Notes under the pieces: generated by a model
Told to the model about the DNA's origin: nothing
Seen by the model: the letters and a program-made list of their open reading frames with translations, nothing else
The model's database searches: none
In this document: piece after piece, positions 3,553 to 27,037 of the stretch
How the letters are laid out: the number at the start of each line of letters is the position of its first letter
How positions within the stretch are numbered: position 1 is the stretch's first letter
Translations under genes and position numbers: made by a program
Origin: a virus
Taxonomy: Duplodnaviria; Heunggongvirae; Uroviricota; Caudoviricetes
Virus record (IMG/VR): IMGVR_UViG_2571042690_000019
Strand: one strand, 5' to 3'
DNA length: 64,000 bases

Positions 3553-4206
3553 CTATCCTTTCTTGAAATCGAAGTTGCCAGCAGTGGCCTGAAAGGTTCC
3601 CCCAGCCTTGAAAGCTATGTCCCCGTTAGCGGTGACAGCTATATTTTCCCCATTAACATTGATGTTGTTGGCTGATTTGACGTTAACACTCCCTCCTGCA
3701 TTCACGATTACATCAGCCGGACCAATGATATATATCTGCCCGGACTCATTCATGCCAATCCTTGAGCCTGCTGCCGTATTGGCAATTTCATAGCCGCCAC
3801 CAGCAGTTCGTACTTCAAGAATATTGTTGCGGTGAATAACGAAGTCTTTCGTTGCTGAGATTTGGGGGCGGGGAGGTGCTCCATCTACTTCCGGCGGCGT
3901 CCAGCCGTTGCCTTTGCCAGATGCTTCTGGTGCAACGTTTGGAATTCCTCCCGGTGCATCCTGAGCGGCACCAACTATCATTGGGCGTCTGGTGTCTATT
4001 CGACCGTTAACATCTAAATAAGGAAACTCTACCCAGACCAGGTCACCTTTGACTGTAGGTACAAAAGCGTTCCCGATGGGTAACTGGTATTCCGCCCAGG
4101 GTAGATCGTCATCAGGAACGCCATTCCAGTCAGGTAAAACACGGACTTGAGCACGCATAAGCCCTGCCGGGTGCACAGTTCCAACAATTTGCGCTCTACG
4201 CTTCAT
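3553..4206 (-). CDS. putative baseplate central spike / gpV-gp45-like protein
   Basis: 217 aa; N-terminal OB-like region (GDLVWVEFPYLDVNGR) then Gly/Asn-rich repetitive C-terminus typical of spike beta-helices. Family assignment is a by-eye guess. Confidence 0.35.
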   Translation of the reverse strand: MKRRAQIVGTVHPAGLMRAQVRVLPDWNGVPDDDLPWAEYQLPIGNAFVPTVKGDLVWVEFPYLDVNGRIDTRRPMIVGAAQDAPGGIPNVAPEASGKGNGWTPPEVDGAPPRPQISATKDFVIHRNNILEVRTAGGGYEIANTAAGSRIGMNESGQIYIIGPADVIVNAGGSVNVKSANNINVNGENIAVTANGDIAFKAGGTFQATAGNFDFKKG

Positions 4207-12826: not shown

Positions 12827-14005
12827 TTAACTAACAATCCAGTCCATAGCAATAACATCCTCTGGAGCTAAATCAATAGCATGGATTTTCCCGTCACGGA
12901 TGGTGCGCCAGTGCTTTCGTGATCCACCTTCGGGCCACACCCATATACCTTCAGGCCAGGAAGAACGACGACACACTGTTGCGTATCCAGTCCTGATCTT
13001 CTCTCTGACGGTATGTAGTGACAGATTATCCTTTGGGCTTTCAGGCACAGGATGGTGGATTGCCTGAAACATCCCCATCTTTGGATGATACCAGCGTTTA
13101 TTGCGTGGTTCTGCCTCCGACATCACCTGCTTAAAGGCTTTCCGGAAGGGGGCACGTGATCCACCTTCGGGCCACACCCATATACCTTCAGGCCAGGAAG
13201 AACGACGACACACTGTTGCGTATCCAGTCCTGATCTTCTCTCTGACGGTATGTAGTGACAGATTATCCTTTGGGCTTTCAGGCACAGGATGGTGGATTGC
13301 CTGAAACATCCCCATCTTTGGATGATACCAGCGTTTATTGCGTGGTTCTGCCTCCGACATCACCTGCTTAAAGGCTTTCCGGAAGGGGGCCAGGGCCACA
13401 ATGGAACGTCGCGCAAGCAAACCGTCGGGAGTTAAAAACTCATGCGTATCTGTGGGGATCCGGTAAGCGTTGACCAGGTTGCGGCATTTGGCTTCAGTCA
13501 GGCCGCATTTCGCCGCTAACTGGCGATAGCCAATGTAGCCTTCCGGAATATTGCCTTTCTTTATTTGCTCGACGGTTTCAGCGACTTTGGTCACTTGTGC
13601 CGATACTTCGGCTACCTGGGCATTAACGGCGTTGATCCGGCGTTCATGCTCAAGATGCATTTGCGCCATTTCAGCCAGAATTTCGGCTTTTGATTTTAAC
13701 TGTACCCGGGCATTCTCCAGTTCGCGCCAGCGGTCCACCAGCCGGGCGGTGAATTCGGGAGAGAGCTGCGCGACGACGACAATACTATCGCGCTTGCCTT
13801 GCTCGCCTTCGAAGAAATAGGCTTTTGTGTATTTATTAGGGCTAAGTGATTGATTATTCTCAACTGTAGCCAATGGCGTATGTTGGATAACTCCTTTAGC
13901 AACAAGTCTTTCGATGCTGCGTTTAACATCAGAGTGACGACTTCCCACCAGTTCCGCGATCTCAATGCTGGTCATTGTCGCTTTTTGAGAGATGGACAGA
14001 TTCAT
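12827..14005 (-). CDS. Rha/Ant-family antirepressor (immI-like module 1) with internal duplication and C-terminal fusion
   Basis: N-terminal Rha-type HTH (MTSIEIAELVGSRHSDVKRSIERL); paralog of 53204..53956; a 79-aa segment occurs twice in tandem; C-terminus matches the separate small ORF 53007..53207 of module 2. Confidence 0.65.
   Translation of the reverse strand: MNLSISQKATMTSIEIAELVGSRHSDVKRSIERLVAKGVIQHTPLATVENNQSLSPNKYTKAYFFEGEQGKRDSIVVVAQLSPEFTARLVDRWRELENARVQLKSKAEILAEMAQMHLEHERRINAVNAQVAEVSAQVTKVAETVEQIKKGNIPEGYIGYRQLAAKCGLTEAKCRNLVNAYRIPTDTHEFLTPDGLLARRSIVALAPFRKAFKQVMSEAEPRNKRWYHPKMGMFQAIHHPVPESPKDNLSLHTVREKIRTGYATVCRRSSWPEGIWVWPEGGSRAPFRKAFKQVMSEAEPRNKRWYHPKMGMFQAIHHPVPESPKDNLSLHTVREKIRTGYATVCRRSSWPEGIWVWPEGGSRKHWRTIRDGKIHAIDLAPEDVIAMDWIVS
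12918..13391. repeat. perfect tandem direct duplication, 2 x 237 bp, inside the antirepressor gene
   Basis: Sequence from about 12918 to 13154 repeats at 13155 to 13391 (gtgatccaccttcgggccacaccc...cttaaaggctttccggaaggggg); 237 is a multiple of 3, so in frame. Confidence 0.9.
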
Positions 14006-14220
14006 CAGTGCACCTCCACGCAGTTCATTGGCAGATTCCAGTAATTGAGGATCTCCATCGCATCAAGAGTGAAGCGAGCAGCAAAAATGCAGGGTTCTTC
14101 GGGAAGGTATGAGCGCGCCTCTGCTTCGGTAGCAGCCATTACGCAGATATAAAGGTGTTTTTGGCAGGAATAGAAACGCCAGATAAATTCAGAATGAGTT
14201 GGGGTAGGGATAGTAGCCAT
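14005..14220 (-). CDS. Icd-like small protein (immI module 1)
   Basis: 71 aa directly upstream of the antirepressor; paralog of 53911..54135 (shared EFIWRF..LQKH...AATE.EARS); size and position match P1 icd from memory. Confidence 0.45.
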   Translation of the reverse strand: MATIPTPTHSEFIWRFYSCQKHLYICVMAATEAEARSYLPEEPCIFAARFTLDAMEILNYWNLPMNCVEVH

Positions 14221-14224
14221 ATTG

Positions 14225-14400
14225 GCAGCCTCCTTTGACTAAGTTAAGGAGCTACCGCGTGAGGTTCCAATCTCAATGGCGGTAGCACTGACTGGGTTGG
14301 AACTACCGGCGTCAAAGGGAACCGGCCTGCCTTTCGGCAGCCCAGCCAGCACTACCATTGATCTCTGAGCTAAACGCTAAGTATGGCTGTGCGATGGCAT
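14225..14400 (-). ncRNA. candidate c4-like antisense RNA / structured leader (immI module 1)
   Basis: Non-coding stretch with nested hairpins (gctaccgc...gcggtagc; ggcctgcc-tttc-ggcagcc) and GGTTCCAA / TTGGAAC complementary heptamers. Coordinates approximate. Confidence 0.25.
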
Positions 14401-14404
14401 GACA

Positions 14405-14427
14405 CAAAAAAAGACGCGTTCGGCGTC
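14405..14427 (-). terminator. rho-independent terminator (minus strand)
   Basis: Minus-strand RNA gacgccgaacgcgtc followed by U7. Confidence 0.5.
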
Positions 14428-14469
14428 TGTGTCGCCTTTGACATTATCCGGGGTTCCAATCCCGGCACC

Positions 14470-14486
14470 CGTTTTTCTAAGGTGCC
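14470..14486. promoter_or_regulatory. C1-operator-like variant upstream of immI module 1
   Basis: ccgtttttctaaggtgc, TTTTCTAAGG variant of the recurring core. Confidence 0.3.
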
Positions 14487-15020
14487 GTAGAAATATACCC
14501 CACGATAATGCCATGGCGCAACAGTCAGTATTTTATGCTTTGGCGGATTTCTTCCGGGCTTGCTTGCAGGCGTAGGCCATTGCTTTAGCTTTCACTTCAT
14601 CCAGCTTCCCGGTGATCACTTCTTTTCCGAGAGTGACAAACCAGTCATAGCAACCGCCAGTAATGTTCTTGATTTGAAAGTTGAGGTAGCGAACAGTCAT
14701 TTTGACACCCCCAGCGCGAGTAAAGAATGCAGATTATCGCGTGAGTGGTGGACGACGAGTGATGGGAAAAGACTGTAGTTGTTCATAGTGTAGTGACTCC
14801 TTGCTTTCGGAGCCGCCATTGACTGTTCCACGGTCTGGTGGCGGCGCAATAAAGGCTGGAACACCGTGAGTCAACGGGGGCTTTTCAGCCACCTATATTG
14901 CACCGCCATAGGTATAGCGGCGGCAATAATACGAAAAACTAAACAGTTTGTCTCAAAAAGTTGACCGGTGTGCCAATCGGTAGTGAATGTACATCGGGGA
15001 AATTTACAATTCAACTTAAA

Positions 15021-15033
15021 ATGTTAGAAAACT
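15021..15033. promoter_or_regulatory. C1-operator-like site
   Basis: atgttagaaaact (reverse complement AGTTTTCTAACAT) at the 3' end of the ref-like gene. Confidence 0.4.
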
Positions 15034-15610
15034 AATTTATCAATTCAATCGCCATCTGATACAACGCCATTTCATCGGCATTGTGCCGTATGAAATCTGC
15101 TTTTCCGCCTATTTTTCCATCAGCATGAACAGGGACCAGCCAGGGATATTGTTCTCGGACCTCGGCTGGCGCTGCGTACTGGTGGTGCCATTTACACAAA
15201 GGGAGGACATATTTATGCGCGTTCTCTGCCGTTCTCCCGAAGATATGGTGCAGGGATACTACTGGGCTATGTTGCCCGTGAATATGGCAGGCAATGCAGG
15301 GGAGAGTACCGATAGCGGTCTGTATCCGGCGTTCATCGGCTGTGAGTGATCTGCCCTTCAGGCCGCGTGACGTGCGTGTTTTTTTGGGCGGAGCGGATAC
15401 AGCTTTATCTTTTCTCCGCTGTTCATATTGCTTTGCTTTTTCAATTTTCTTTTGCCGATATTCAGGCGATGCGGCTTTTTCTCTCGCTCGCTGCTGCTGG
15501 CGTTGAGCTTGTTGAAGGCGCTTTGCCCTTTGTTCCTCTCGCCAGGCCGGGTCAGCCAATTTTTGCATGGCTTTTTGTCTCTGTTTCTCCCAATAACTCT
15601 GTTTCTGCAT
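15032..15610 (-). CDS. ref: Ref-like HNH endonuclease (RecA-dependent nuclease)
   Basis: 192 aa; highly basic Q/R/K-rich disordered N-terminus then Cys/His core (LPCIACHIHG...SLHHIFGRT...LPLCKWHH), as recalled for P1 Ref. Confidence 0.55.
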   Translation of the reverse strand: MQKQSYWEKQRQKAMQKLADPAWREEQRAKRLQQAQRQQQRAREKAASPEYRQKKIEKAKQYEQRRKDKAVSAPPKKTRTSRGLKGRSLTADERRIQTAIGTLPCIACHIHGQHSPVVSLHHIFGRTAENAHKYVLPLCKWHHQYAAPAEVREQYPWLVPVHADGKIGGKADFIRHNADEMALYQMAIELIN

Positions 15611-15677
15611 GATGGCAGTCTCTTACTTTTCAACGATTTTTCTATGATTGATCAAAATGGTTAGATATTCAAAATTG

Positions 15678-15695
15678 ATTTTCTAACATAAAACA
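15678..15695. promoter_or_regulatory. C1-operator-like site in divergent promoter region (ref / 15856 operon)
   Basis: gattttctaacataaaac. Confidence 0.45.
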
Positions 15696-15855
15696 TTAAT
15701 ATCATTCCTGATAACTGTTTGGAGGACATGATGCTTATAGCTTTAAGTGCGATCCACCAGCCATCTGTGAATGAGATTGGCCTGTTCTATGTGTTGGTTT
15801 TCGGGGCGTTGGCGCTACTTGAGCTTGGTATTGAGCTTTTCGCAGTGCTTATGTT

Positions 15856-16506
15856 TTGCGTCACGATTCTGGGGAAATTTTGATGGTGAAACGTGTTTTG
15901 AAAATTTACATCGCGGGGCCGATGACTGGTTATCCAGATTACAACCGTGCGGCGTTTAATGCGAAAGCGAGCGAGCTGATGTCTGAAGGGCATATCGTTC
16001 TGAATCCAGCTGTGTTACCTGGTGGCCTTTGCCAGAGTGAATACATGGATATTTGCCTGGCAATGGTGCGTTCTGCTGATGCGATCTATCTGCTCAATCA
16101 ATGGGAAGAATCGGTTGGTGCTCGCGCAGAGCACGCGCTGGCTGAAAAGCTGGGGCTGACTGTAATTTATGAGTCACAAACCAACATTGAATGCCAGGTT
16201 GCTCCGCATATTTACCGTGAACTGGTAAATGCGTTACGTGATGTTGCTATTGAATGTCACGGCACGGATCAGCTTCGCGCCCGCTTAAGCAAAACCCTTT
16301 CCAGTTACCTGTCTTTGGCTGAAGGATACAACCTCCGGCAGCGGAGAATGGTCAAATTAATCACGCGTTTATCTCAATCCCTGGCAAATGCCGAACCAAC
16401 TAATCCGCTACCTAATGACGCAATGAATTACCTGAAGTCATGCGGCGTTGTTTCTGAAGATGCAGTTCGTTTTGTGGAGTTTATGTCTCAGAGGATGTCA
16501 GCGTGA
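15856..16506 (+). CDS. nucleoside 2-deoxyribosyltransferase-like (DUF4406-type) protein with extra C-terminal module
   Basis: N-terminal IYIAGPMTGYPDYNRAAFNAKASEL...ADAIYLLNQWEESVGARAEHALAEKLGL; C-terminal HIYRELVNALRDVAIECHGTDQLRARLSK is shared with the 538-aa protein at 24449..26065. Confidence 0.45.
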   Translation: MRHDSGEILMVKRVLKIYIAGPMTGYPDYNRAAFNAKASELMSEGHIVLNPAVLPGGLCQSEYMDICLAMVRSADAIYLLNQWEESVGARAEHALAEKLGLTVIYESQTNIECQVAPHIYRELVNALRDVAIECHGTDQLRARLSKTLSSYLSLAEGYNLRQRRMVKLITRLSQSLANAEPTNPLPNDAMNYLKSCGVVSEDAVRFVEFMSQRMSA

Positions 16507-16820
16507 GCTGGCGGGGATGGGGAAGGGCGGAAATCATGATACTCCGCCAGTGCGCCGGGACTATGACAGTCGTGAGTATTGGGAGGCTGATCGGGCGTAC
16601 CGGTAGTGCTGTCAGAACCAAAGCGCGGCAACTGCGGATCTGCATGATTCTGAAAGGAGACTTTCACCCGTCAGCCAAATACCGGCAGGGCGATATAGAA
16701 CTGGCACGGCAGCTTCATCGGTGTGGTGTTCCCCGCCGTGAGATCGCAGAAAAACTCGAAATGCCCTTGAGCATGATTAATCAGTACGTTTATTTCGAAA
16801 GGAGAGTACATGAAGTCTGA
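16503..16820 (+). CDS. small HTH DNA-binding protein
   Basis: 105 aa; C-terminal HTH-like GVPRREIAEKLEMPLSMINQYV; start overlaps upstream stop. Confidence 0.45.
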   Translation: MSWRGWGRAEIMILRQCAGTMTVVSIGRLIGRTGSAVRTKARQLRICMILKGDFHPSAKYRQGDIELARQLHRCGVPRREIAEKLEMPLSMINQYVYFERRVHEV

Positions 16821-17313
16821 AGGTTTAACGCCAGCACAACTGGCAGAGCGTAACGCTGAGTATGTAACGGAAATTTCCCGACTTGAGAAAGAACGCTCGG
16901 CGCTGGCGGCGGAGAATGAACTGGCTCGTAAGGCAGTTCAGGCATTCTGCGATGTTGTTGGCGACAACACCGAGGTTATCGCTGAGGAGGTTGGGCGAGA
17001 TGGCGTTCTGGTTATTTTGGAGGCCATGAAGGCAACAGGAAATATGCCAGCCACCGATGCTTTCCTGGCTGAAATTCGTGCGGAGGCTCGCAACGAGGGG
17101 ATTAACTATACCGCAAGCCGTCTTGCTGCTGCTTTCAACCACGGATTTATCAATAAGTCTTTACGTGAAGTTTTCGACGTTACACGCATGATTCTGTCAG
17201 CGAAAGAAGAGTTGGCTAATGAACCGCACCCGATTGATGGCCTGTCCGGTGAATATGCGGAGAAATCCCTTGAAGAATGGGCGGAACAGATTCGCAAAGG
17301 AGCTGACAAGTGA
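16810..17313 (+). CDS. coiled-coil paralog family member 1
   Basis: 167 aa; family motifs SALAAENELARKA, PATDAFLAEIRAEA, AEQIRKGADK. Confidence 0.5.
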   Translation: MKSEGLTPAQLAERNAEYVTEISRLEKERSALAAENELARKAVQAFCDVVGDNTEVIAEEVGRDGVLVILEAMKATGNMPATDAFLAEIRAEARNEGINYTASRLAAAFNHGFINKSLREVFDVTRMILSAKEELANEPHPIDGLSGEYAEKSLEEWAEQIRKGADK

Positions 17314-17720
17314 AGAAGATGATTTTTGTCGCGGCATTGTTGGTGAATATCCAACAAGTGCATGCTTCAGCAGCTATTGTAGCCTCTACCGCCGCGACTA
17401 CGGCTGCTGTAGCTGCTGCGAACTCTGCGAATATCGCAAACCAACAGGCACAGCGTGCTGCTAATGCATCAGCCAGCGTTCACTCAATCACCATTAAGAG
17501 CAGTAAGCAAAATCTGGGATTCATAACGTGCGGCACGCGTTCTAATGAAGCTGTAGGTTCACTTGGATGTACGGTATATGGGGGTAGTGAGAATAGAGAA
17601 ATTCCATGGAAAACGTGGCCCGGATACGTTCTTGGCTCGAAGCTCCCGGCCAGTTATGAAGTAAACGCCGTATCGTTTGATCACTATAACGGCGTGGCAA
17701 CGGTCTATTTTGCATATTGA
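17310..17720 (+). CDS. small secreted protein
   Basis: 136 aa with signal peptide and Ala/Thr-rich repeat. Confidence 0.45.
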   Translation: MKKMIFVAALLVNIQQVHASAAIVASTAATTAAVAAANSANIANQQAQRAANASASVHSITIKSSKQNLGFITCGTRSNEAVGSLGCTVYGGSENREIPWKTWPGYVLGSKLPASYEVNAVSFDHYNGVATVYFAY

Positions 17721-18514
17721 GGCTCCGCATGAAATTCTCCAAATTTTCTGAGTTGGTGAATCGTATTTTGTCCAACAACCACAGCCATCGTCGCGATATG
17801 GATGTAACGATCGTTGTTCATTCGCCTGGCAGCATTGGTTCAACACCCTCAGTTGAGGTTCAGTCAATTCACGCTGGTTTTGATTGGGATTCCGGGAAAG
17901 TGCTGATTTTCCCAGCACAGCCACTGACCACGCTAACACCAGAACAGATTACTGATATTACTGATAGTGTGCGCAAAGGTCAGTCCTGGCACGCATATCA
18001 GGAATACAAGAAGCATAAAGAGCAGTTGGAAAAATTATCGATTGAACTTGATACCGCAAAACAGCGCATTGCAGAGCTGGAGGGTAATCGCGCGGCGCTG
18101 GCTGCGGAGAATGCGAGACTGAAGGCGATATGTGAGGATCGCCGCACGTTCATTATGAATGGCGTGCAGCTTGGTTTTATCAAGGTGCCAACAGTGGAAA
18201 TAGATCCAGCTCTTGAAACAATTCGTATCGCCCTATCACCACAAAAAACCACTCCTGCGACCGACACTTTCCTAGATGAAGTGAAGACTGAAGCACGCAA
18301 GGAGGGCGCTTACTTTGTGGCGAATAGAATGCTGGCTGCCTGGGAAGCTGGTTTTATTGATGATACTGCGAAGAACGCCGCGGATATTGCCCGGATGATT
18401 CTTACCTCTACTGAGTTTATGGCTAATGCGCGGGAAGGCGATTTTGACCGCTCATTCTCTGATGGTGTTCTCGAAGATATCGCTGAACAGCTTCGCAAAG
18501 GAGGCAGCCAGTGA
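17717..18514 (+). CDS. coiled-coil paralog family member 2
   Basis: 265 aa; AKQRIAELEGNRAALAAENARLKA, PATDTFLDEVKTEARKEG, C-terminal AEQLRKGGSQ overlapping the next GTG start. Confidence 0.5.
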   Translation: MRLRMKFSKFSELVNRILSNNHSHRRDMDVTIVVHSPGSIGSTPSVEVQSIHAGFDWDSGKVLIFPAQPLTTLTPEQITDITDSVRKGQSWHAYQEYKKHKEQLEKLSIELDTAKQRIAELEGNRAALAAENARLKAICEDRRTFIMNGVQLGFIKVPTVEIDPALETIRIALSPQKTTPATDTFLDEVKTEARKEGAYFVANRMLAAWEAGFIDDTAKNAADIARMILTSTEFMANAREGDFDRSFSDGVLEDIAEQLRKGGSQ

Positions 18515-19152
18515 GCGAGCTTTACTATCAGACGTTACGTGAACGTTTTTCACCGAAACCAGCGCCTAAATGCTCTGTTTGTGGCGAGGAAATGTCAATG
18601 CAGCGCATATCTGGATCACATGTTGTTTATGCCTGTTCCGGCATGGAGGACGACGGATGCTTCAAAACTGGACGAACTTATGCTGACGAGCATTACAAAA
18701 AATCGCGCATAACAGTAGTTGATGATAGCGATCCTGATGTGATTGAACTGCTGGAAGAGAACATGGAGATGGCTCTAACGCTTGAGAAGCTGCGTGTTGA
18801 GCTGGAGGCTGCTAAACAGCGTATTGCCGAATATGAAAGCAATTGCGGGGCGATGGTGGCGGAATGCCAAAGCAAAAAAGCAGCTCTTGAGGCAATTCTT
18901 AGCCATTGCCCAATTAATCATCCAGATATAGACATCGCATGTATAGCGAACATCGCTCATAACGAATTAGGCGGGGCGAAAAGCACTACATCTAAGGCAT
19001 ACCTTGTAGAAATACAGGCACAAGGGGTGGAGGCATTCGCTTTGACGATGCGCGATACCGGAGATGATCCATTTTTTGATTCCGTTGCTTCTGCTTGCGC
19101 GGATGCAGCTGATAGGTTCGCTGCCCAGCTTCGAAAAGGAGGCAAACAGTGA
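18511..19152 (+). CDS. coiled-coil paralog family member 3
   Basis: 213 aa from GTG; N-terminal VSELYYQTLRERF module, CxxC...C, LEAAKQRIAEYE, C-terminal AAQLRKGGKQ. Confidence 0.5.
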   Translation: MSELYYQTLRERFSPKPAPKCSVCGEEMSMQRISGSHVVYACSGMEDDGCFKTGRTYADEHYKKSRITVVDDSDPDVIELLEENMEMALTLEKLRVELEAAKQRIAEYESNCGAMVAECQSKKAALEAILSHCPINHPDIDIACIANIAHNELGGAKSTTSKAYLVEIQAQGVEAFALTMRDTGDDPFFDSVASACADAADRFAAQLRKGGKQ

Positions 19153-19397
19153 GTAATACCGCACGACTACAGCTTGGTTTTTTACCGCTATCAAAAACCA
19201 TCGTGTTGGCAAAAATGCGTGACTTAGGGGATGGAACAAAACGTCGTGTCGGCAATGATCGCGGTCGTGATGTAACCAACGAGGCCGCACAACTCGTTTG
19301 GCATCTAGTCATGGCTGAAGGCGGTGAAATTAATTGGGAGCTGGATGATGGTTCTCGCATGGTATTAAAGGCAGAAAAGCAGGAGCCACCACAGTGA
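19149..19397 (+). CDS. hypothetical small protein
   Basis: 82-aa ORF from GTG overlapping the upstream stop. Confidence 0.35.
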   Translation: MSNTARLQLGFLPLSKTIVLAKMRDLGDGTKRRVGNDRGRDVTNEAAQLVWHLVMAEGGEINWELDDGSRMVLKAEKQEPPQ

Positions 19398-19687
19398 ATA
19401 TCGACACCACGATAACGATTGATACGGCCCTAAATACCGGTCTGGCACTTCTCGGTTGGCTTTACATCATGTCCAGTACATGGCGATGGCTGGGTTCCAT
19501 TTTCCTGAAACAGTGGAAAAAACGGCGCAAACAGGAATTACGCCAGAAGGCATTAGAAGCGTTCTATGACGCATTTGAACTTAGCCGCATTGAACCAGGC
19601 ACAACAGCCAGGATAGCGACAAAAGGCGACCTGATGATAGTGATGTTCCGACAGGAGAAAGCAAATGGCAGCAAAGCGAATGACTAA
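19394..19687 (+). CDS. hypothetical small membrane protein
   Basis: 97-aa ORF with one hydrophobic segment; translationally coupled. Confidence 0.35.
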   Translation: MNIDTTITIDTALNTGLALLGWLYIMSSTWRWLGSIFLKQWKKRRKQELRQKALEAFYDAFELSRIEPGTTARIATKGDLMIVMFRQEKANGSKAND

Positions 19688-19889
19688 TCGCGAACTTGTT
19701 GATGCCGCGATTGAACTTGCTGGCGATTTTTATTCCATGATGGGGTACACGCATCGCCCCGGCTTCAAATATTGGGAGTCTCCGCACCCGCAAGAGCAAC
19801 GGGTATTTCAAATGGCCTGTCGCGCTTTTGAAGTTATTCGCGGTTCTGATGTGATGGACGCGGTTGCTGATTTGGAGGATGAAGAGTGA
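19665..19889 (+). CDS. hypothetical small protein
   Basis: 74-aa ORF in the operon. Confidence 0.35.
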   Translation: MAAKRMTNRELVDAAIELAGDFYSMMGYTHRPGFKYWESPHPQEQRVFQMACRAFEVIRGSDVMDAVADLEDEE

Positions 19890-20197
19890 ACACAATTAAA
19901 GAAATGCCGGTAGAACGTGATGAATATGGCTGCTGGACACATCCGGAGTATGAAAAGTTTTGCGCAGGTCGTGAATATATATCCACTGAGGAATTTGACG
20001 CCTGGATGAAGGAAAATAATCTTCAGTGGACTATTCGCAGTATGGATGAAGATGATTTTGGTCTGGACGCAGCTGGTCCCGATATTGCCGCCTGGGAACC
20101 GGAGCGACCAGAGGGTGAAGGCTGGTTTGTTGGCTCTATTCATGACACTGAAGATGGTCCGGTTTGTATCTGGCTGCGGGAGAAGGTTGCCGCATGA
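19886..20197 (+). CDS. hypothetical small protein
   Basis: 103-aa ORF; stop overlaps the phosphatase start. Confidence 0.35.
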
Positions 20198-20886
20198 TCC
20201 AGGCTATGCATGAAATGAATTTATATAGCCGTATTGATGGTTCTGGCTACAGAAACATATGGGTTGTTGGTGATCTGCATGGTTGCTACACCAGACTGAT
20301 GTCCGAACTCCATCGTGTGGATTTTGACCCGACGCAGGATTTACTGATATCGGTTGGCGACCTTATCGATCGCGGTACTGAAAATGTCGAATGTCTGGAA
20401 CTATTGCAGATGCCCTGGTTCAGGGCAGTAATGGGGAACCATGAGCGGTTGATGCTTGATGCGTTAAGTCCTGATGGCAACGTGAATAACTGGCTAATGA
20501 ATGGCGGACAATGGTTCTTCATGCTGGACACTGATCAGGAAATATTAGCCAAGGCGCTGGTGGAGCTGGTAAAGCGTCTGCCATATATCATTGAGTTGAA
20601 CACCGGGCATGAAACTATCGTTATAGCCCATGCCGACTATCCAGGTGGAGAGTACCAGTTCGGTAAGGATGTGTCGTTTTTTGATGTTGTCTGGTCGCGC
20701 AGTCGCGTCGGTGATTCGATAGATGGCATTGGTGGAGAAATCACAGGCGCAGATCGCTTTATCTTTGGGCACACACCGGTACGAAGACCAAAAGCATACT
20801 GGAATCAGCACTACATAGACACGGGCGCGGTTTTTTGCGGAAATCTGACGCTAATGCAGGTGAAGGGAGGGCAGCTTAAAGTCTGA
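20194..20886 (+). CDS. ppp: Ser/Thr protein phosphatase (lambda PPase-type metallophosphatase)
   Basis: Motifs GDLHG, GDLIDRG, GNHE; start placed at the ATGA-overlapping ATG (20194) rather than the upstream in-frame Met. Confidence 0.75.
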
Positions 20887-20907
20887 TCAAATCATTTACG
20901 CACTCAA

Positions 20908-20948
20908 AATGCGTTAGAACATTGATTTTAGTTTTCTAACATATTATT
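20908..20948. promoter_or_regulatory. inverted pair of C1-operator-like sites upstream of 20984 gene
   Basis: gcgTTAGAAcattgattttagtTTTCTAACatattatt. Confidence 0.45.
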
Positions 20949-20983
20949 TTACCGCTCGGAACAAAACAGAGTCGGTATACATT

Positions 20984-21979
20984 ATGAGTGCAATAATCAC
21001 ACCTCATTTCGTGAACGGAGCTGGTGTGGCTGTCTTTCCGGTAGACAAGCCCACCAGTAACTACATTGGCGCAGGCCGCCGTTTCATTATCTCCCCACTT
21101 CCGCGTGAACAGGCTGAAAACACGCCAGATGGCGTAGTGGATCTGAACTATTCGCTGGTTGCCAACCAGTCTCTGAAACCGTTTTTTCAAAGCGAGCGCG
21201 TATTTAACGCGTTGGGCGGTGAAGATTCGCTTGTTCATTGGGTAAGTTCCAATATCCACGATTGCCAGGCGCACGATAAGCGCGATTGCAGCCACCAGCT
21301 AACCACTCATTTCTATAACGGCTCTGCCGTTCGCCTGTGCTGGAAGCATGATGCGGAATACATGATGAAGGGGTACAGCAAGCTGGACGACCAGTTATCC
21401 CTGAATCGTGCCAACTGGGTTATGAACTGGGCTGCGAGCGAGTTAAAACTACCGCCAGAACGCGATCTGAGCATGGTTGAACTCACTTTTTGGGCCATTC
21501 GCCGGAATCTGAAAGATGAGCTGCCAGATGAAGCCGGTCGCATTGCATTTTGTCAGCCAAAAACTGAAATCCCTACCGGTACGCTGAAAGAATCAGATAT
21601 CACCTGGGAGCACAGTACCCGCGAGCTGGTGGACATAACCGCAGAGCAGATCGTCAACCTGTCTGTAGATGAGGATTCCGGCCTGCTTTATATGCGCCGA
21701 CCAAAAGCGGTCCTCGGTAAAAGCCCGGCTTATCTCCGGTTTGTGGTTTCTCGTCCGTGCATCGGATGCGGTGGCAAAGTTAACCACCCGTTCATGTACC
21801 GCGCCCGCTCGTTAAACGAACACGACCGCTGGGCTGTTCCTCTTTGCGATGACTGCGCCAGAAGCGCAGAAAACGATGTCCGGGCATGGGAAAAAGCACA
21901 TGGCATACGCCTTTACGTAGCCGCTAACCAGCTTTTTGACTTCGCCATCGAGCGCGGAGTGATCACTTTCAATAACTGA
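20984..21979 (+). CDS. hypothetical protein with C-terminal Cys-rich (Zn-binding-like) region
   Basis: 331 aa; CIGCGG...HDRWAVPLCDDCAR cysteine cluster. Confidence 0.5.
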   Translation: MSAIITPHFVNGAGVAVFPVDKPTSNYIGAGRRFIISPLPREQAENTPDGVVDLNYSLVANQSLKPFFQSERVFNALGGEDSLVHWVSSNIHDCQAHDKRDCSHQLTTHFYNGSAVRLCWKHDAEYMMKGYSKLDDQLSLNRANWVMNWAASELKLPPERDLSMVELTFWAIRRNLKDELPDEAGRIAFCQPKTEIPTGTLKESDITWEHSTRELVDITAEQIVNLSVDEDSGLLYMRRPKAVLGKSPAYLRFVVSRPCIGCGGKVNHPFMYRARSLNEHDRWAVPLCDDCARSAENDVRAWEKAHGIRLYVAANQLFDFAIERGVITFNN

Positions 21980-21983
21980 TGAG

Positions 21984-22685
21984 GTGGATCAAAAAATGAA
22001 AGAACGCGGGATGATTTTTAACGATGAGATGGTCAGGGCCATCCTCGAAGGAAGGAAGACGCAGACTCGCCGACCTGTAAAAAATGTCAGGGCCGATAAC
22101 TGCCTGGTTATCCGTAAACCGACAAAGAAACGCAATGGTATCTATACCCACGTTATGGATGCACCTGAACATGGTTTATGCCCGTTCGGTAACGTTGGTG
22201 ATCGCATATGGGTCCGTGAGGCGTGGGCGATATTAGGCAATGAGGATGGTTGCAGTGTGGACTGGAACGACAACCTTTGTCGTGGCGATGAGAAGAACGC
22301 AGCAAGGATTTATCGGGCCAGTTGTGAGCAAAAGCCGGGTGATTACGGCTTGTGGTCGATACCCGATGATGCCGACTGGAAACCTCACACTGTGAATGAA
22401 AAATTTGATGGCGGGTGGTGTCCATCAATTCACATGCCGCGCTGGGCATCGCGCATTCTTCTGGAAATTACCAACGTGCGCGTTGAGCGGTTGAACGATA
22501 TCAGCGAATGCGATGCAAGGGCTGAGGGCGCACCAACAGAATCGACCCTCATTGGCGATAAGCATTACCCAAGTTTCCGTAGCCTATGGAAATCAATTTA
22601 TGGCGAAGATAGTTGGAACGCTAATCCTTGGGTGTGGGTAATCGAGTTTAAGCGTATTCAGGGGGCAACCAGTGAGCAAAATTAA
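21984..22685 (+). CDS. putative ASCH-like domain protein
   Basis: 233 aa; N-terminal MIFNDEMVRAILEGRKTQTRRP resembles the ASCH signature from memory; tentative. Confidence 0.35.
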   Translation: MDQKMKERGMIFNDEMVRAILEGRKTQTRRPVKNVRADNCLVIRKPTKKRNGIYTHVMDAPEHGLCPFGNVGDRIWVREAWAILGNEDGCSVDWNDNLCRGDEKNAARIYRASCEQKPGDYGLWSIPDDADWKPHTVNEKFDGGWCPSIHMPRWASRILLEITNVRVERLNDISECDARAEGAPTESTLIGDKHYPSFRSLWKSIYGEDSWNANPWVWVIEFKRIQGATSEQN

Positions 22686-22854
22686 CTATCAAGAACTGCG
22701 CGAGGCGGCGGAACAGGCAACGCAAGATGAATGGGTAGCATATATTTTGCCGGTCATAACGGCATTTATCCTGCGCGCACGTCTGAGGGTAGGCATTGCG
22801 GATACTTTATTGACTGGCCTGGCGTCTGTCAGGGGCGGGAGAGCATCAGCATGA
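22672..22854 (+). CDS. paralog-family N-module small protein
   Basis: 60 aa from GTG; VSKINYQELREAAEQ matches the N-terminus of 23261..23707. Confidence 0.35.
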   Translation: MSKINYQELREAAEQATQDEWVAYILPVITAFILRARLRVGIADTLLTGLASVRGGRASA

Positions 22855-23264
22855 GCATCAGAACCTACGCAGTGAATTGCAATGACGCATGGCTAAACAC
22901 CGAAGGTGATGACATCTCCGGCTCATACGTTAAGTACAAAGACCATCAGGAAGTGGTTGCCGCTCTTGAGGCCAGGTGCGCGGCGCTGGCAGCGGAGAAT
23001 GCGGCGCTTAAACAGTCGGAGAAGGAATTTAATAACTTCTGTCGTCAGGAGTACTACGGTTGGGAGGACAACTTCACGGAAACCCCAGCTACCGACGCTC
23101 TCCTGGCTGAAGTACGTGCGCAGGGGGTGGATATGGCTCGTAACGCGATGATTGATTTTGTTGATGGTGAAGTTGGGCCAAACAAGAACGTTCCGGGGCT
23201 GATTAGAGGCGCAGAGATATGCGTAAGTATTGCTGAACAGCTTCGCGAAGGAGGCAACCAGTGA
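22851..23264 (+). CDS. coiled-coil paralog family member 4 (C-module)
   Basis: Start moved to the ATGA-overlapping ATG; AALAAENAALK, PATDALLAEVRAQG, C-terminal AEQLREGGNQ. Confidence 0.45.
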   Translation: MSIRTYAVNCNDAWLNTEGDDISGSYVKYKDHQEVVAALEARCAALAAENAALKQSEKEFNNFCRQEYYGWEDNFTETPATDALLAEVRAQGVDMARNAMIDFVDGEVGPNKNVPGLIRGAEICVSIAEQLREGGNQ

Positions 23265-23707
23265 GCAAGATTGATTATCAAAAGCTTCGTGAAATCGCTG
23301 AAAAAACAAAAATTGCTGGTGAAGCACCTGTAATGCCTTTCGATCAGCGAATTAATGCGCTTAACGATTTTATGAAGCACTTTTCGCCAGATATCGCGCT
23401 GGCATTGTTGGATGAACGGGAAAGAAACCAGCAATACATCAAACGCCGCGACCAGGAGAACGAGGATATTGCGCTAACGGTAGGGAAGTTGCGCGTTGAG
23501 CTTGAGGCAGAAAAACAGCGGGCAAAGGATCTGTTTATGGAAAATGCTCGGCTTAAGTCAGGTATAGCCGGTCTGATACACCTCGGTATTCGATATGCAG
23601 ATGTTGATGTCATGAAAATTGCTGGAGATGCCCAGCTTTCTACCCCATGCACTGACAGCATCATAAACAGCATTGCAACAGGCATTCGCATCAACGGAGG
23701 TGAGTAG
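23261..23707 (+). CDS. coiled-coil paralog family member 5 (N-module type)
   Basis: 148 aa from GTG; VSKIDYQKLREIAEK...LRVELEAEKQRAKDL. Confidence 0.45.
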   Translation: MSKIDYQKLREIAEKTKIAGEAPVMPFDQRINALNDFMKHFSPDIALALLDERERNQQYIKRRDQENEDIALTVGKLRVELEAEKQRAKDLFMENARLKSGIAGLIHLGIRYADVDVMKIAGDAQLSTPCTDSIINSIATGIRINGGE

Positions 23708-23879
23708 TGCGTGTGGCATGTATTGGCTTGTTACCGTACCCGACTCGTTTTTGGGCTTCTGCGCTAATTGCAAAGCCGTATGTCCTGATGGCTGACAACA
23801 TCATCCCGGCACCAAAGCGCCGCCATACCGGTATTGCAGCGGCACGACGAGCAGCAAAGAGACGCAGGAGAGCAAAGCG

Positions 23880-24056
23880 ATGAAAAACCGTAAGGCAAAA
23901 CGACTTTTTTTACAGCGACCTGTGCGTGTGGTGGAGCTGGTTATTAGCAACCATAAGATAGCGGTACTCCATCCATTTGGTCAGGTGGCTTTTGCCGCAA
24001 AGCGTAAGCCTACTGCGTCACAGAACAGGCGGAAGAAAGGGTACGCTGTAAGATGA
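23880..24056 (+). CDS. small basic protein (tandem paralog 1)
   Basis: 58-aa ORF MKNRKAKRLFLQRP...; the same MKNRKAK N-terminus restarts at 24053. Confidence 0.3.
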   Translation: MKNRKAKRLFLQRPVRVVELVISNHKIAVLHPFGQVAFAAKRKPTASQNRRKKGYAVR

Positions 24057-24241
24057 AAAACCGTAAAGCAAAGATTCTGTTAGTTCGTAGAAACGCTCCT
24101 GGCGTCTGGCAGTGGGTGAGACTCAGCAACCGACGGATGGGGTTGATGAAATATTACGGGATGATGGATTGTGGTTTTTGCAAAAAGCCCAGCGCGGCGC
24201 AAAACCGCTGGAAAAACCACTTGCGCACTAAAGGAGAGTGA
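24053..24241 (+). CDS. small basic Cys-containing protein (tandem paralog 2)
   Basis: 62 aa MKNRKAKILLVRRN...; ATGA overlap with the previous ORF. Confidence 0.3.
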   Translation: MKNRKAKILLVRRNAPGVWQWVRLSNRRMGLMKYYGMMDCGFCKKPSAAQNRWKNHLRTKGE

Positions 24242-24242
24242 T

Positions 24243-24452
24243 ATGGCTATTGCCGCAAGTTACACAATGCATCTCTATTGTGACTGCCGCCAGTGTACGG
24301 AAGGTGTATATCCAGTGCCAGACTTCGGTGAGTATATAGGTACGTCATGGGCTGGCTGTGCAAAAGAGGCGCGCAAGGATGGCTGGCGAATAAGCAAAGA
24401 CAAAACGCGTGCTTTTGCGCCCGGGCATAAAGTTTTGAGGATTAACAAATGA
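24243..24452 (+). CDS. small Cys-rich protein
   Basis: Start at the ATG with a strong AAGGAG RBS; MAIAASYTMHLYCDCRQCTEG.... Confidence 0.35.
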   Translation: MAIAASYTMHLYCDCRQCTEGVYPVPDFGEYIGTSWAGCAKEARKDGWRISKDKTRAFAPGHKVLRINK

Positions 24453-26065
24453 CCACTATTACCAGAGAACAAGCTCTGAAAATTATTGAGGCAGCCGATG
24501 AGGTTATTAGTGCGCTTGCCGGAACTAACGAGGATGTTCACCCTGGTAGCGATAACATGCTACGCCTGTGGGATGACCTGAATGACCGTTACGCGCCGCC
24601 GGAAGTTGTGCGTGAGCTGGCACGAATTGCACTGGCATCGCTGGAAGCAGAACCAGTTAAACGAGTTAACTCAGATCAGATGCGCCGAGTCTGCTTAGAA
24701 GCTAATCGCCATTTAGATAAATATGACGCGATGGCGAAAGAGGTAAATAAGTTGCTTGGACGCATCGCCCCGCCAGCACCGGTAGTGCCTGAAGAAGCAA
24801 CTCCGGAAAACGTAGAAATGCTCTCTGGCTATGTTTCAACGTACAAATTAACCGATAGCGAGCGCGATATTGCTGCCGAAATATGGAACGCCTGCCGCGC
24901 CGCCATGCTTCAGTCCGGAAACTTTCGGGAAAACAAGAATTCGTCAACCAATAATTTTCGGGAAATCGCGGAAACGTCAACCAGCTATCCGGCAATTCCT
25001 AGTGAGGTGTTGTCCGCAATCCTGAAGGTTGCCAGGATTCGTGCCGATTTCGATGATTTTGACGGTGACAGGCGAGGTATCGGTGATTGTCTGGATGAGG
25101 CCGAGCAAGAGCTTATCGTTACCATTAACAAATATGCCAGTCAGTTGGCAGCAGAACCGATAGCGGCTAATGACGTTCGAGAGCAGCAGACAGCCGTTCC
25201 GCCAGTTCCAGAAATACAGGCTGATGTCGCGCAAGCAATTGAAAATCTCAAGCAGAAGTTAGTGGAATGCAATCGCTATAACTACTGCGCAGATGCAGTT
25301 AAAGGCGTAGAGGATGCCAGCCGCGTCTTGGCACTCCAAAATCAAAATATGTCAGCACCGGTAACGCCGGAGGCCATTGAAAACGCAATTGAATATATCC
25401 GCAGTATCGCTTTTCACATCGATGAAGACGATTACCACGGCAAGCATATTGCGTATTTCATGCGACAAGCATTGGCCTGGCTGGAAGGGCATTCATGCAG
25501 CGACGACAGGCTGGGTAAGGCCGACAATCAACCCGCATCTGGTAACCAGGCTGCCGAATCCAATCGCGGTAATGAGTGGACCGGCAATCCTGATATTGAT
25601 AACGCCATCATCATGCTCGACCGCATAGATACGGCGGAAAGTTGCGATGATGACCGTATTGAGGCCGTTAAGGCTGTGTTGCGTAGACTGGCAGGCAACT
25701 ATCCGGATATTCCGGATAGTTCGGTGCCAGCGCCAGGAAAGGGCGTCACCGGTGAACGTATCCGCATTAAGCCGCATGTTTATCGCGAACTGGTTAACCG
25801 TCTCCACGATACAGCGATCAAGTGTGCTGGCACCCAGCAATTACGAGAAAGAATTAGCCGTGTTTTGGGCGACGTTATTACACCAGATCATCATAAACAA
25901 GCCGAGAAAAGTGGCCTGGAAAGGTGTCGCCTTGAGGCGGCATTAAACATTAAGCCGGGGCATACGCTTGGCATTATTGATGCACTATTGGTTCATAAGA
26001 TGGCCAGGGCTTTATTGCCGCTGGTGGCTGAAAAGCATGAGGTGGACCATGCCAACGAAAGCTGA
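24449..26065 (+). CDS. large hypothetical protein (538 aa)
   Basis: Long ORF; C-terminal KPHVYRELVNRLHDTAIKCAGTQQLRERISR is shared with 15856..16506. Confidence 0.5.
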   Translation: MTTITREQALKIIEAADEVISALAGTNEDVHPGSDNMLRLWDDLNDRYAPPEVVRELARIALASLEAEPVKRVNSDQMRRVCLEANRHLDKYDAMAKEVNKLLGRIAPPAPVVPEEATPENVEMLSGYVSTYKLTDSERDIAAEIWNACRAAMLQSGNFRENKNSSTNNFREIAETSTSYPAIPSEVLSAILKVARIRADFDDFDGDRRGIGDCLDEAEQELIVTINKYASQLAAEPIAANDVREQQTAVPPVPEIQADVAQAIENLKQKLVECNRYNYCADAVKGVEDASRVLALQNQNMSAPVTPEAIENAIEYIRSIAFHIDEDDYHGKHIAYFMRQALAWLEGHSCSDDRLGKADNQPASGNQAAESNRGNEWTGNPDIDNAIIMLDRIDTAESCDDDRIEAVKAVLRRLAGNYPDIPDSSVPAPGKGVTGERIRIKPHVYRELVNRLHDTAIKCAGTQQLRERISRVLGDVITPDHHKQAEKSGLERCRLEAALNIKPGHTLGIIDALLVHKMARALLPLVAEKHEVDHANES

Positions 26066-26333
26066 ATTACAGGTGCGCGTAGATGAGCTTGAAAAAGAGA
26101 ACGCGAGCCTCAAAAAAATGCTGTCGCGGGCGGAAAGGGAATTATCAGGCAAATTATTGCCAGAAGAACTGCCACCAGCAGATATACCTGATCGAGTGTC
26201 CTGGTGGATGAAGTATTTCCGTGCACCGTGGGAGGCGTTTTGGTGCTACGACCATCGCAGATGGTGTGATGAACTTGATAGCAATTTTCCCTACTTTGCG
26301 GAAGGGAACACCTGCCCTCAATGCAGGGGATAG
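26049..26333 (+). CDS. small coiled-coil protein with C-terminal zinc ribbon
   Basis: Start at internal ATG (MPTKAELQVRVDELEKENASLKK...); ends ...CPQCRG. Confidence 0.4.
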   Translation: MPTKAELQVRVDELEKENASLKKMLSRAERELSGKLLPEELPPADIPDRVSWWMKYFRAPWEAFWCYDHRRWCDELDSNFPYFAEGNTCPQCRG

Positions 26334-26700
26334 CATTTGACGAAATCGATCACCCTATCCTGAACTTCAGAAAGAAGGTCTTTTTCACGCGCCAGGACGT
26401 CAGGATATTGACGTTCTGGCCTTACCAGATGCCGGAGCTTCCCATTAAGCAGAATGGCCTCAGAAAACACTTTTACGCTGTGCTTTATCCCCTCTGTTTC
26501 ACTTTTCAGCGTCAAAATAAAGCGCAATTGCTTATTAGCCTGATTCGGATTCAATACACGAATTTGCAGTTCGTCTATGCTGTTTCGCAATGGGATTGAT
26601 GCCACCACACTGGTGCAGTCTCTGATTGTCTGAATTGAACGGCTAACATTGAGAACGTTATTGTGCATGTGCCTGATCCACTAACTCCTGGAGGTTTCTT

Positions 26701-26952
26701 GTGTCAGATCGAAATATAGCAGCTAAAAGCCAGGAAGAGCGAGACAAGGTGAACGTAGACCTTGCCGCCAGCGGCGTTGCTTACAAAGAACGGCTGAATA
26801 TACCTGTGATTGCAGAGCAGGTGGCCCGTGAGCAACCGGAAAACCTGCGCGCCTATTTCATGGAACGGCTACGGCACTACCGGCAGTTAAGCCTCCAGTT
26901 GCCAAAAGGGAGCGATCCGGTGTATCAGAACGAGGATGCACCAAAAAAATAA
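26701..26952 (+). CDS. hypothetical small protein
   Basis: 83-aa ORF from GTG with GGAGG 7 nt upstream. Confidence 0.4.
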
Positions 26953-27037
26953 CGGCAAGATGGGGGAGAAATGTGATTAGCCCCCAGCGTGGCGCGCCTA
27001 CAAACCCCGCTTTCACAAACTATGCCTTTTCAATGTA

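Follow-up and report, generated by a model that had tools for sequence, protein, structure and literature searches.

Mosaic Ead/Ea22- and Eae-like genes of a D6-like phage-plasmid and the short DNA junction that probably serves their translation and exchange

The window examined here, the whole 64,000-nt stretch of IMG/VR record IMGVR_UViG_2571042690_000019 (Caudoviricetes), is, by its sequence similarities, a D6-like (P1-related) phage-plasmid of Escherichia coli. Between positions 16810 and 23707 it carries five genes whose sequences assign them, as mosaic members, to the pool of Ead/Ea22 and P22 Eae-like genes. This pool is carried by lambdoid (early-left), P22-like and epsilon15-like phages in their early operons. 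We consider it probable that the DNA encoding the C-terminal tail of these genes acts as stop of one gene, as ribosome-binding site and start of the next, and as an island for crossovers. The sequence-only reading that had drawn attention to the array did not recognise the family, which is known as Ead/Ea22 (PF13935) and P22 Eae-like.

The gene array and its junctions

Two of the genes, all of which lie on the plus strand, are Eae-like. The gene at 16810-17313 (167 aa) combines a short coiled coil (AALAAENE block) with a three-helix PATD C-domain and the tail AEQIRKGADK-stop. It belongs to PHROG 614 (E=2e-54) and shares 68% identity overall with phiV10 gp46 ("eae-like protein"), the last 87 aa being identical save for the final residues. 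The gene at 17729-18514 (261 aa; PHROG 368/6026) has a private N-domain, an AALAAENA coiled coil, a PATD C-domain and the tail AEQLRKGGSQ-stop, and its alignment with homologues is mosaic. Its open reading frame (ORF) opens at TTG 17717, where the gene had been listed; following the annotation of sister plasmids, the gene most likely starts at ATG 17729. The Pfam scan gave no match for these two genes, both of which are without the Ea22 N-module. NCBIfam had no match for the proteins of the region either, so that the Eae-like genes are without a curated model in Pfam or NCBIfam.

The other three genes are Ead/Ea22-like and score above the curated PF13935 (Ead_Ea22) threshold of 27 bits. They comprise the gene at 18511-19152 (213 aa, zinc-ribbon-like N-domain; E=8e-13, 49.5 bits), the split gene at 22672-23264 and the gene at 23261-23707 (148 aa; E=2e-22, 80.8 bits), which ends with the '+GE'-type tail GIRINGGE-stop. 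The split gene consists of the ORFs 22672-22854 (60 aa; PF13935 match on the first 28 aa, 35.7 bits) and 22851-23264 (137 aa, beginning at an ATGA restart; tail AEQLREGGNQ-stop). The product of the 23261 gene shares 59% identity with lambda Ea22 over 87 aa of N-module and coiled coil (BLASTP, E=2e-26). Since the 16810 and 17729 genes lack a PF13935 match, the claim of Ead/Ea22 membership covers three of the five genes; the PHROGs across the array are 368, 614 and 492. A PDB sequence search with two array proteins gave no real match, so neither of the two has the C-terminal domain of lambda Ea22. Experiments have shown that Ea22 of lambda and of Stx phages is tetrameric and acts in favour of lysogeny (PMC7093339, PMC10834534); by analogy with lambda Ea22, the array proteins may influence the lysis-lysogeny decision.

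A 20-nt junction motif (AAAGGAGGCAACCAGTGAGC, up to three mismatches) occurs at four sites in the window, 18497, 19135, 22658 and 23247, and in none of 100 shuffles. An independent repeat search recovered three block families, namely tail/junction, AALAAENA and PATD. The first of these comprises four 45-nt copies (17269-17313, 18470-18514, 19108-19152 and 23220-23264), which encode tails of the type A-x-Q-(L/I)-R-K-G-G-x-Q-stop; in the protein alignment they read AEQIRKGADK, AEQLRKGGSQ, AAQLRKGGKQ and AEQLREGGNQ. Longer repeats unite the junction with the N-module (18478-18543 and 23228-23293, 66 nt, 83%; 22660-22720 and 23249-23309, 74%). At 18511, 19149 and 23261, a perfect 6/6 AGGAGG (within AAGGAGG) is followed by a 6-nt spacer and a GTG that overlaps TGA as GTGA, which agrees with the sequence-only reading that the RKGG codons form a strong ribosome-binding site and the stop overlaps a GTG start. 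The N-module VSKI(N/D)YQ.LRE proposed for downstream genes was likewise recovered in the protein alignment, as VSKINYQELRE, VSKIDYQKLRE and VSELYYQTLRE.

Five junctions can be numbered along the window. J2 (18470-18543), J3 (19108-19160) and J5 (23220-23309) are canonical islands. J2, with its AGGAGG, 6-nt spacer and GTGA overlap, and J5 are followed by an Ea22 N-module; J3 leads into a non-Ea22 gene (DUF7446, 19149-19397). J1 (17269-17330; AAAGGAGCTGACAAGTGA, in full cgcAAAGGAGctgacaaGTGA) is degenerate and leads into a signal-peptide gene, not into an Ea22 N-module. At J4 (22656-22720; cAGGGGGcaaccaGTGAGC) the island is kept as DNA only. It follows an unrelated gene, 21984-22685, which reads it in a different frame (...IQGATSEQN-stop) and overlaps the GTG by 14 nt; thus J4 is not a protein tail. 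A second junction type (ggcattcgcatcaacGGAGGtgagTAGTG; GGAGGTGAGTAGTG) lies at 23680-23712, after RINGGE-stop, and leads into a 58-aa ORF (23707-23883).

The earlier picture of five genes sharing blocks and an RKGG tail is accordingly altered in part. The shared blocks stand as the three repeat families, the gene listed at 22851 being the 3' part of the split gene 22672-23264. The tail was found in the 17729 and 18511 genes and, as an REGG variant, in the split gene; the 23261 gene ends RINGGE and the 16810 gene ends KGADK. The junctions placed near 18490, 19130 and 23245 were recovered, that near 17290 is degenerate, and that near 22660 is present as DNA only, in another frame.

Searched with a 50-nt junction probe, complete E. 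coli genomes yielded 1325 places (1113 chromosomal, 212 plasmid) in at least 1048 of 5426 genomes. The junction was also present in at least 375 plasmids, more than 120 IMG/VR contigs and at least 292 phage records. These phage records include more than 140 Stx phages, HK620, P22-like phages (eaE/eaA), mEp phages and the epsilon15-like phiV10; in HK620, hkaH and hkaG flank the junction, at a site of the pL operon that lies between abc2 and int. The exact junction pattern was found in none of 185,579 species-representative genomes. The junction allele is essentially a sequence of E. coli, Shigella and Salmonella phages.

Exchange of genes and domains

The window stretch of about 7.5 kb around the array matches Escherichia phage D6 piecewise, with 96.5% identity. 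Matches to the stretch were also obtained in 998 plasmid records; most are E. coli plasmids that are non-mobilizable and about 90 kb in size, and these are P1/D6-type plasmid prophages. Query coverage reaches at least 80% in just 3 of the 998; therefore, the stretch is variable among otherwise similar elements. Instead of one fixed gene content, which the sequence-only reading had named as an argument against module shuffling, the region differs among D6-like plasmids, and RefSeq annotates two to four "ead/Ea22-like family protein" genes at the same position of sister plasmids.

The flanks of the junction were compared in 116 distinct 600-nt windows centred on it. Left flanks formed 42 clusters and right flanks 29, joined in 80 combinations (counted over loci, not over independent events). 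Seventeen pairs of left types have at least two right types in common, which could not have arisen unless recombination took place between the flanks. From -32 to +4 the information content is close to its maximum; it is moderate up to about +48 (the N-module) and at background level beyond; the island shared between unrelated flanks measures approximately 37-80 nt.

Six elements were used for the comparison with sister elements. Similarity of D6 to the cassette 18511-19152 starts at 18489 and stops at 19140, inside J2 and J3. In plasmid CP057047 (L124) the cassette is missing exactly, and the single remaining junction is a hybrid, with the sequence of its left parent, J2, to about -30 and that of its right parent, J3, after this point. 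In a further sister plasmid (L123) the cassette occupies a different position. The proposal of the sequence-only reading that the junctions are cassette boundaries open to shuffling is borne out by the combinations of flank types and by this exact loss.

Exchange also appears to take place inside the genes. In pMTY1586 the first gene combines parts of the 16810 and 17729 genes into a chimera whose joints fall on the AALAAEN and PATD blocks. Among all fetched loci, 170 of 352 similarity end-points fall within the 11% of the region that is covered by the three block families; when neighbouring end-points were collapsed, 19 of 36 sites lay on these families (p=8e-10). The AALAAEN-type block (16874-16920, 18069-18115 and 22957-23003, plus strand) accounts for 53 similarity ends and the PATDxFLxE(V/I)(R/K) block (17047-17086, 18254-18293 and 23085-23124, plus strand) for 45, which suggests that these two blocks serve as exchange points as often as the junction does. 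One N-domain is joined to at least five different C-domains in the protein alignment, always via the same blocks.

The last 89 residues of the 17729 gene product constitute a real domain. It is represented by 240 cluster representatives among 1.84 billion proteins and occurs in 13 species-representative genomes, 11 of which are labelled Enterobacterales (Pseudescherichia, Phytobacter, Pantoea, Erwinia, Lelliottia, Pectobacterium, Enterobacter and Atlantibacter). The other two are contigs labelled Actinomycetes (L167, a metagenome-assembled genome) and Chryseobacterium (L172); they carry E. coli-type Eae-like genes, and L167 also has the J1-type joint of window position 17310; both are probably contamination or mis-binned contigs. 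Structure prediction of the shared C-domain, which had been suggested earlier, gave an AlphaFold model of three helices (pLDDT 88) with the last five residues outside the fold. A fold search with this model against PDB and BFVD returned nothing below E=0.7 and is uninformative for a three-helix bundle. The full-length 261-aa model (pLDDT 55) is usable for the coiled coil only.

Proposed role of the tail DNA and its alternatives

We propose that the proteins of this pool are built of swappable pieces. In some of them the Ea22 N-module (MSKIDYQxLRE) comes first, together with an N-domain that varies; then follow a coiled coil, a linker that also varies, a PATD block at which one of several C-domains begins, and F/I-A-x-Q-L-R-K-G-G-x-Q as a tail of 11 residues. 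The DNA of the tail terminates the upstream gene, while its K-G-G codons form a consensus ribosome-binding site 6 nt before the GTG that overlaps TGA; with this arrangement, any downstream cassette would be translated by coupling. Joined to the initial ~45 nt of the gene that follows, the same DNA makes up a near-identical island of about 37-80 nt common to unrelated neighbours. Homologous recombination, by host RecA or by phage annealases of the Red/RecT/Erf type, would cross over within the island and so add, delete or swap whole cassettes in register, and the two blocks inside the genes would permit domain swaps in the same manner. Efficient recombination of homologies that are short and diverged is a known capacity of Rad52-type phage annealases (PMC3945230).

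What is conserved at the end of the tail appears to be a ribosome-binding site and not a peptide. In relatives at 40-50% identity, the residues after L-R read NGEAV, AGEVKP, QGGAA, KGVQS, QEAAL, GSQV, AGRKV or REASND. All of these divergent tails still spell GGAG(G) or GGGAGG 4-9 nt before an ATG, which overlaps the stop as ATGA in 9 of the 13 species representatives; the genes that come next are unrelated to one another. In some loci, what precedes the E. coli-type island is an unrelated protein or non-coding sequence, and the Q-L-R codons are CAG CTT CGN in 138 of 148 junctions, a set retrieved with search patterns that left these codons free and partly overlapping a biased sample. It is this retention of GGAG(G) by divergent residues, the position of the island behind unrelated or other-frame DNA and the near-invariance of its codons that point to the ribosome-binding site. 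A-x-Q-L-R is conserved as protein in homologues at 40-50% identity and ends predicted helix 3, so that the island would be in part coding constraint and in part ribosome-binding site. The same conservation could be taken to mean that the tail functions as a peptide, for example in tagging the protein for degradation or as an interaction motif, and that its overlap with a ribosome-binding site is incidental. We regard this as quite improbable, given that residues beyond L-R vary freely, yet GGAG(G) is always well placed before the overlapping start, that the same DNA stands behind unrelated proteins and out of frame at 22658-22685, and that the last five residues are predicted to be unstructured. 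Another explanation, which we hold to be unlikely, is that the island is conserved as an RNA hairpin (GCUUC pairing with GAGGC, UCGCUG with CAGUGA) that hides the ribosome-binding site and GTG until it is opened by the upstream ribosome, thus enforcing strict coupling. At 18511 this hairpin has the lowest energy of the predicted structures, at 19149 it is the centroid, and the natural sequences rank 0.005 and 0.09 for occlusion against synonymous recodings, with a mean rank of 0.28 for the E. coli type. Folding z-scores of -1.3 to +0.95 are, however, not significant, common GCC variants break the outer helix, and the synonymous-recoding test over 19 family junctions gave a mean rank of 0.47 (p=0.31). 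The hairpin, predicted at two junctions and unsupported over the 19, was rejected as a family-wide explanation and is kept as a minor rival.

As to how the cassettes come to be exchanged, illegitimate recombination followed by selection for intact genes could leave islands that are simply places where coding and ribosome-binding constraints hold and similarity ends. It would fit with reports that boundary sequences are lacking at most mosaic joints (PMC3029335) and that no trace of flanking homology is seen in about 70% of recent mosaics (PMC3945230), as well as with the 17 of 36 collapsed breakpoint sites outside islands. As the sole source of the pattern this is improbable, for the crossover of CP057047, preceded by left-parent and followed by right-parent bases, lies inside a 37-nt island, in-gene breakpoints fall on the two DNA blocks that alone are common to the paralogues, and synonymous sites of the island are almost invariant across unrelated flanks. 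Illegitimate recombination with selection nevertheless also contributes to the mosaicism. The presence of five related genes with several common blocks within 7 kb might instead suggest that the repeats are remains of a recent tandem duplication in this plasmid, with no wider role. This can hardly be credited, as the paralogues are unrelated outside three short blocks and the same island joins dozens of genes in lambdoid, P22-like, epsilon15-like and P1-like elements. More weight than to any of these alternatives, though still only tentative belief, is given to the island as a selected, recombinase-independent cassette adaptor that both ensures expression of an inserted gene and supplies homology for in-register exchange. 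If this were true, the Ea22/Eae tract would be an integron-like system of accessory-gene exchange across lambdoid, P22-like, epsilon15-like and P1/D6-like phages, with near-invariant synonymous sites upheld by repeated gene conversion or by selection for exchangeability.

Several points weigh against the tail DNA being both coupling element and crossover island. Translational coupling is predicted from the nucleotide sequence, including the retention of this architecture in diverged relatives, and it is not special to the array genes, because 4-nt start/stop overlaps are normal in this operon (11 of 20 gene junctions). The absence of the junction from the 185,579 species representatives marks it as a young allele, and the identity of synonymous sites could reflect simple recent descent instead of selection. 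Part of the island is under the ordinary coding constraint of A-x-Q-L-R. The loci of the flank analysis were found by the junction motif itself and come from many related prophages, so that their counts are not independent events. Also, most of the 17 breakpoint sites outside islands are no more than 30 nt away from gene boundaries at which no sequence is shared, which means that homology is not needed for all mosaicism.

Related features and comparison with known systems

The '+GE' tail of Ea22 may be a second instance of such dual coding. Every Ea22 protein is reported to terminate in a basic residue followed by Gly-Glu ("+GE"), and the significance of this ending was given as unknown by Dydecka et al. 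(PMC7093339). The tail DNA reads ATC AAA AGA GGT GAG TAA TG in 933W and ATC AAC GGA GGT GAG TAG TG in the 23261 gene of the window; in both, it has a ribosome-binding site and then a start that overlaps the stop. This start opens a small, conserved ORF of 51-58 aa (MRVACIGLLPYPTRFW...), which is unannotated in 933W (L233, minus strand, 3948-4123). The joint is present in 933W (TAATG), in phiV10 and in 30 of 233 fetched loci. Lambda (L232, minus strand) keeps the tail DNA (AAAGGAGAGTGA, 1040-1060) without an ORF downstream; the GTG of lambda ea22 overlaps, as GTGA, an unannotated ORF for a 73-aa zinc-finger protein (1593-1814). Most simply, the '+GE' motif would be the same phenomenon, that is, a ribosome-binding site and overlapping start of a small downstream gene. 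Two adjacent small paralogous ORFs, 23880-24056 and 24053-24241, both start with MKNRKAK, and the latter ends ...RTKGE-stop on AAAGGAGAGTGAtATG, another '+GE' tail of the ribosome-binding-site type.

Compared with the intact homologue that plasmid pF374-2 (L001) carries, the split gene 22672-23264 lacks 1 nt near 22758. A 6-nt insertion creates the ATGA stop/restart at 22851, so that two ORFs (60 and 137 aa) replace one. In this allele family, 28 of 67 copies in the fetched loci are frameshifted, by at least four independent mutations. The ATG-creating insertion is present in 27 of the 28 frameshifted and in 20 of the 39 in-frame copies (Fisher p=4e-5 by copies, only 3/4 by events). IMG/VR holds 7 and 20 frameshifted contigs versus 50 intact ones. 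Instead of being a product of decay, the split form may be one that is tolerated or even favoured, and split Ea22 alleles should not automatically be dismissed as pseudogenes.

All genes between 15883 and 26065 lie on the plus strand, and ATGA or GTGA overlaps of 4 nt occur at 11 of the 20 consecutive gene junctions. A scan of 16500-24000 for promoters and terminators gave fewer promoter-like sites than in shuffles and no convincing terminator, a result that is consistent with a single transcription unit and has no further informative value. Given this common orientation, the overlaps and the lack of a convincing internal promoter or terminator, the region can be read as a single long operon, compact in its translation and divergent from the ref gene. 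A signal-peptide protein of 136 aa (17310-17720, plus strand; PHROG 8805, no known function) is encoded between the two Eae-like genes; its gene is present in sister plasmids L001, L124 and L126 and absent from L123, L125 and D6. PADLOC models for anti-phage defence matched none of ten proteins of the region.

The Chi octamer (GCTGGTGG) occurs at 44 sites of the 64-kb window, for instance at 477, 3797, 20556, 21292 and 21625, against 1.9 expected from shuffles. Over-representation of Chi is a described trait of the P1 genome. Chi was considered as a cause of the breakpoints and rejected: there are three exact sites in 16500-24000, none of the 44 lies within the Ea22/Eae genes, and the AALAAENA block is only loosely Chi-like. 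Outside the array, a perfect tandem duplication at 12918-13390 (237 bp, 2.0 copies, 100% identical) repeats 79 residues in frame in an anti-repressor (Ant/Rha-like) gene, the minus-strand ORF 12827-14005; it is either a very recent event or an assembly artefact.

The array provides a clean, countable example of how temperate phages reshuffle their accessory genes. One short sequence would serve as stop, ribosome-binding site, start and crossover point and would link elements from different families of phages, among them phage-plasmids that spread resistance genes as well. When genes of this pool are annotated, their short, conserved tails at the C-terminus would best be treated as dual-coding DNA, not as peptide motifs.

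The gene families, ea22 mosaicism and the general idea of boundary sequences are already known. Mosaicism of ea22 in Stx phages, variable C-terminal domains and the GTG start have been published (PMC10834534, PMC7093339). For the specific junction, literature searches, whose coverage excludes the HK620 boundary-sequence paper (Clark et al. 2001), found no description; nor did we find described the double role of the tail as ribosome-binding site and start or the spread from lambdoid to P1/D6-type elements.

The array shares a mosaic build, variable C-terminal domains and the GTG start with the Ead/Ea22 proteins (PF13935; lambda Ea22, P22 Ead, 933W L0140-type). Lambdoid phages, however, carry one copy between exo and xis, whereas the window has five in an operon of a P1/D6-type plasmid prophage, and the lambda C-terminal alpha/beta domain was found in none of the array genes (PDB sequence search with two of the proteins, no match). 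With the P22 Eae-like proteins (phiV10 gp46, ES18 gp43) it has in common the three-helix PATD domain and the RKGG tail; the N-terminal half of the 16810 gene product is unrelated, and its tail has degenerated to KGADK at the joint with a non-Ea22 gene.

Short boundary sequences proposed as recombination foci in lambdoid phages belong to the modular theory of Susskind and Botstein and were treated for HK620 by Clark et al. (2001), both as cited in PMC3029335. There, as here, a short sequence at the gene boundary is kept between unrelated modules and recombinant joints lie inside it, and HK620 itself carries the window junction. The linker of the window differs in that it lies inside coding sequence, doubles as ribosome-binding site and start, occurs up to five times per operon and is shared with P1-like and epsilon15-like elements.

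Integron cassettes (attC and IntI) resemble the array in being promoterless, equally oriented units that have a short repeated element at their borders and are acquired or lost whole. An integron cassette array was nevertheless rejected: no recombinase ORF was found in 14000-27000, and the junction has no attC-type structure. In contrast to integrons, the window has no nearby integrase, no imperfect inverted repeat and no attC-like fold, the junction folding no better than shuffled sequence. Exchange would proceed by general homologous recombination, and expression would depend on the ribosome-binding site of the linker, not on a common promoter alone.

Translational coupling through overlapping stop and start codons (ATGA or GTGA) in compact operons has been reviewed (PMC12548453). 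Coupled gene pairs likewise have the ribosome-binding site in the 3' end of the upstream gene and a 4-nt overlap; in the window, by contrast, the predicted coupling element is copied nearly base for base between non-homologous pairs.

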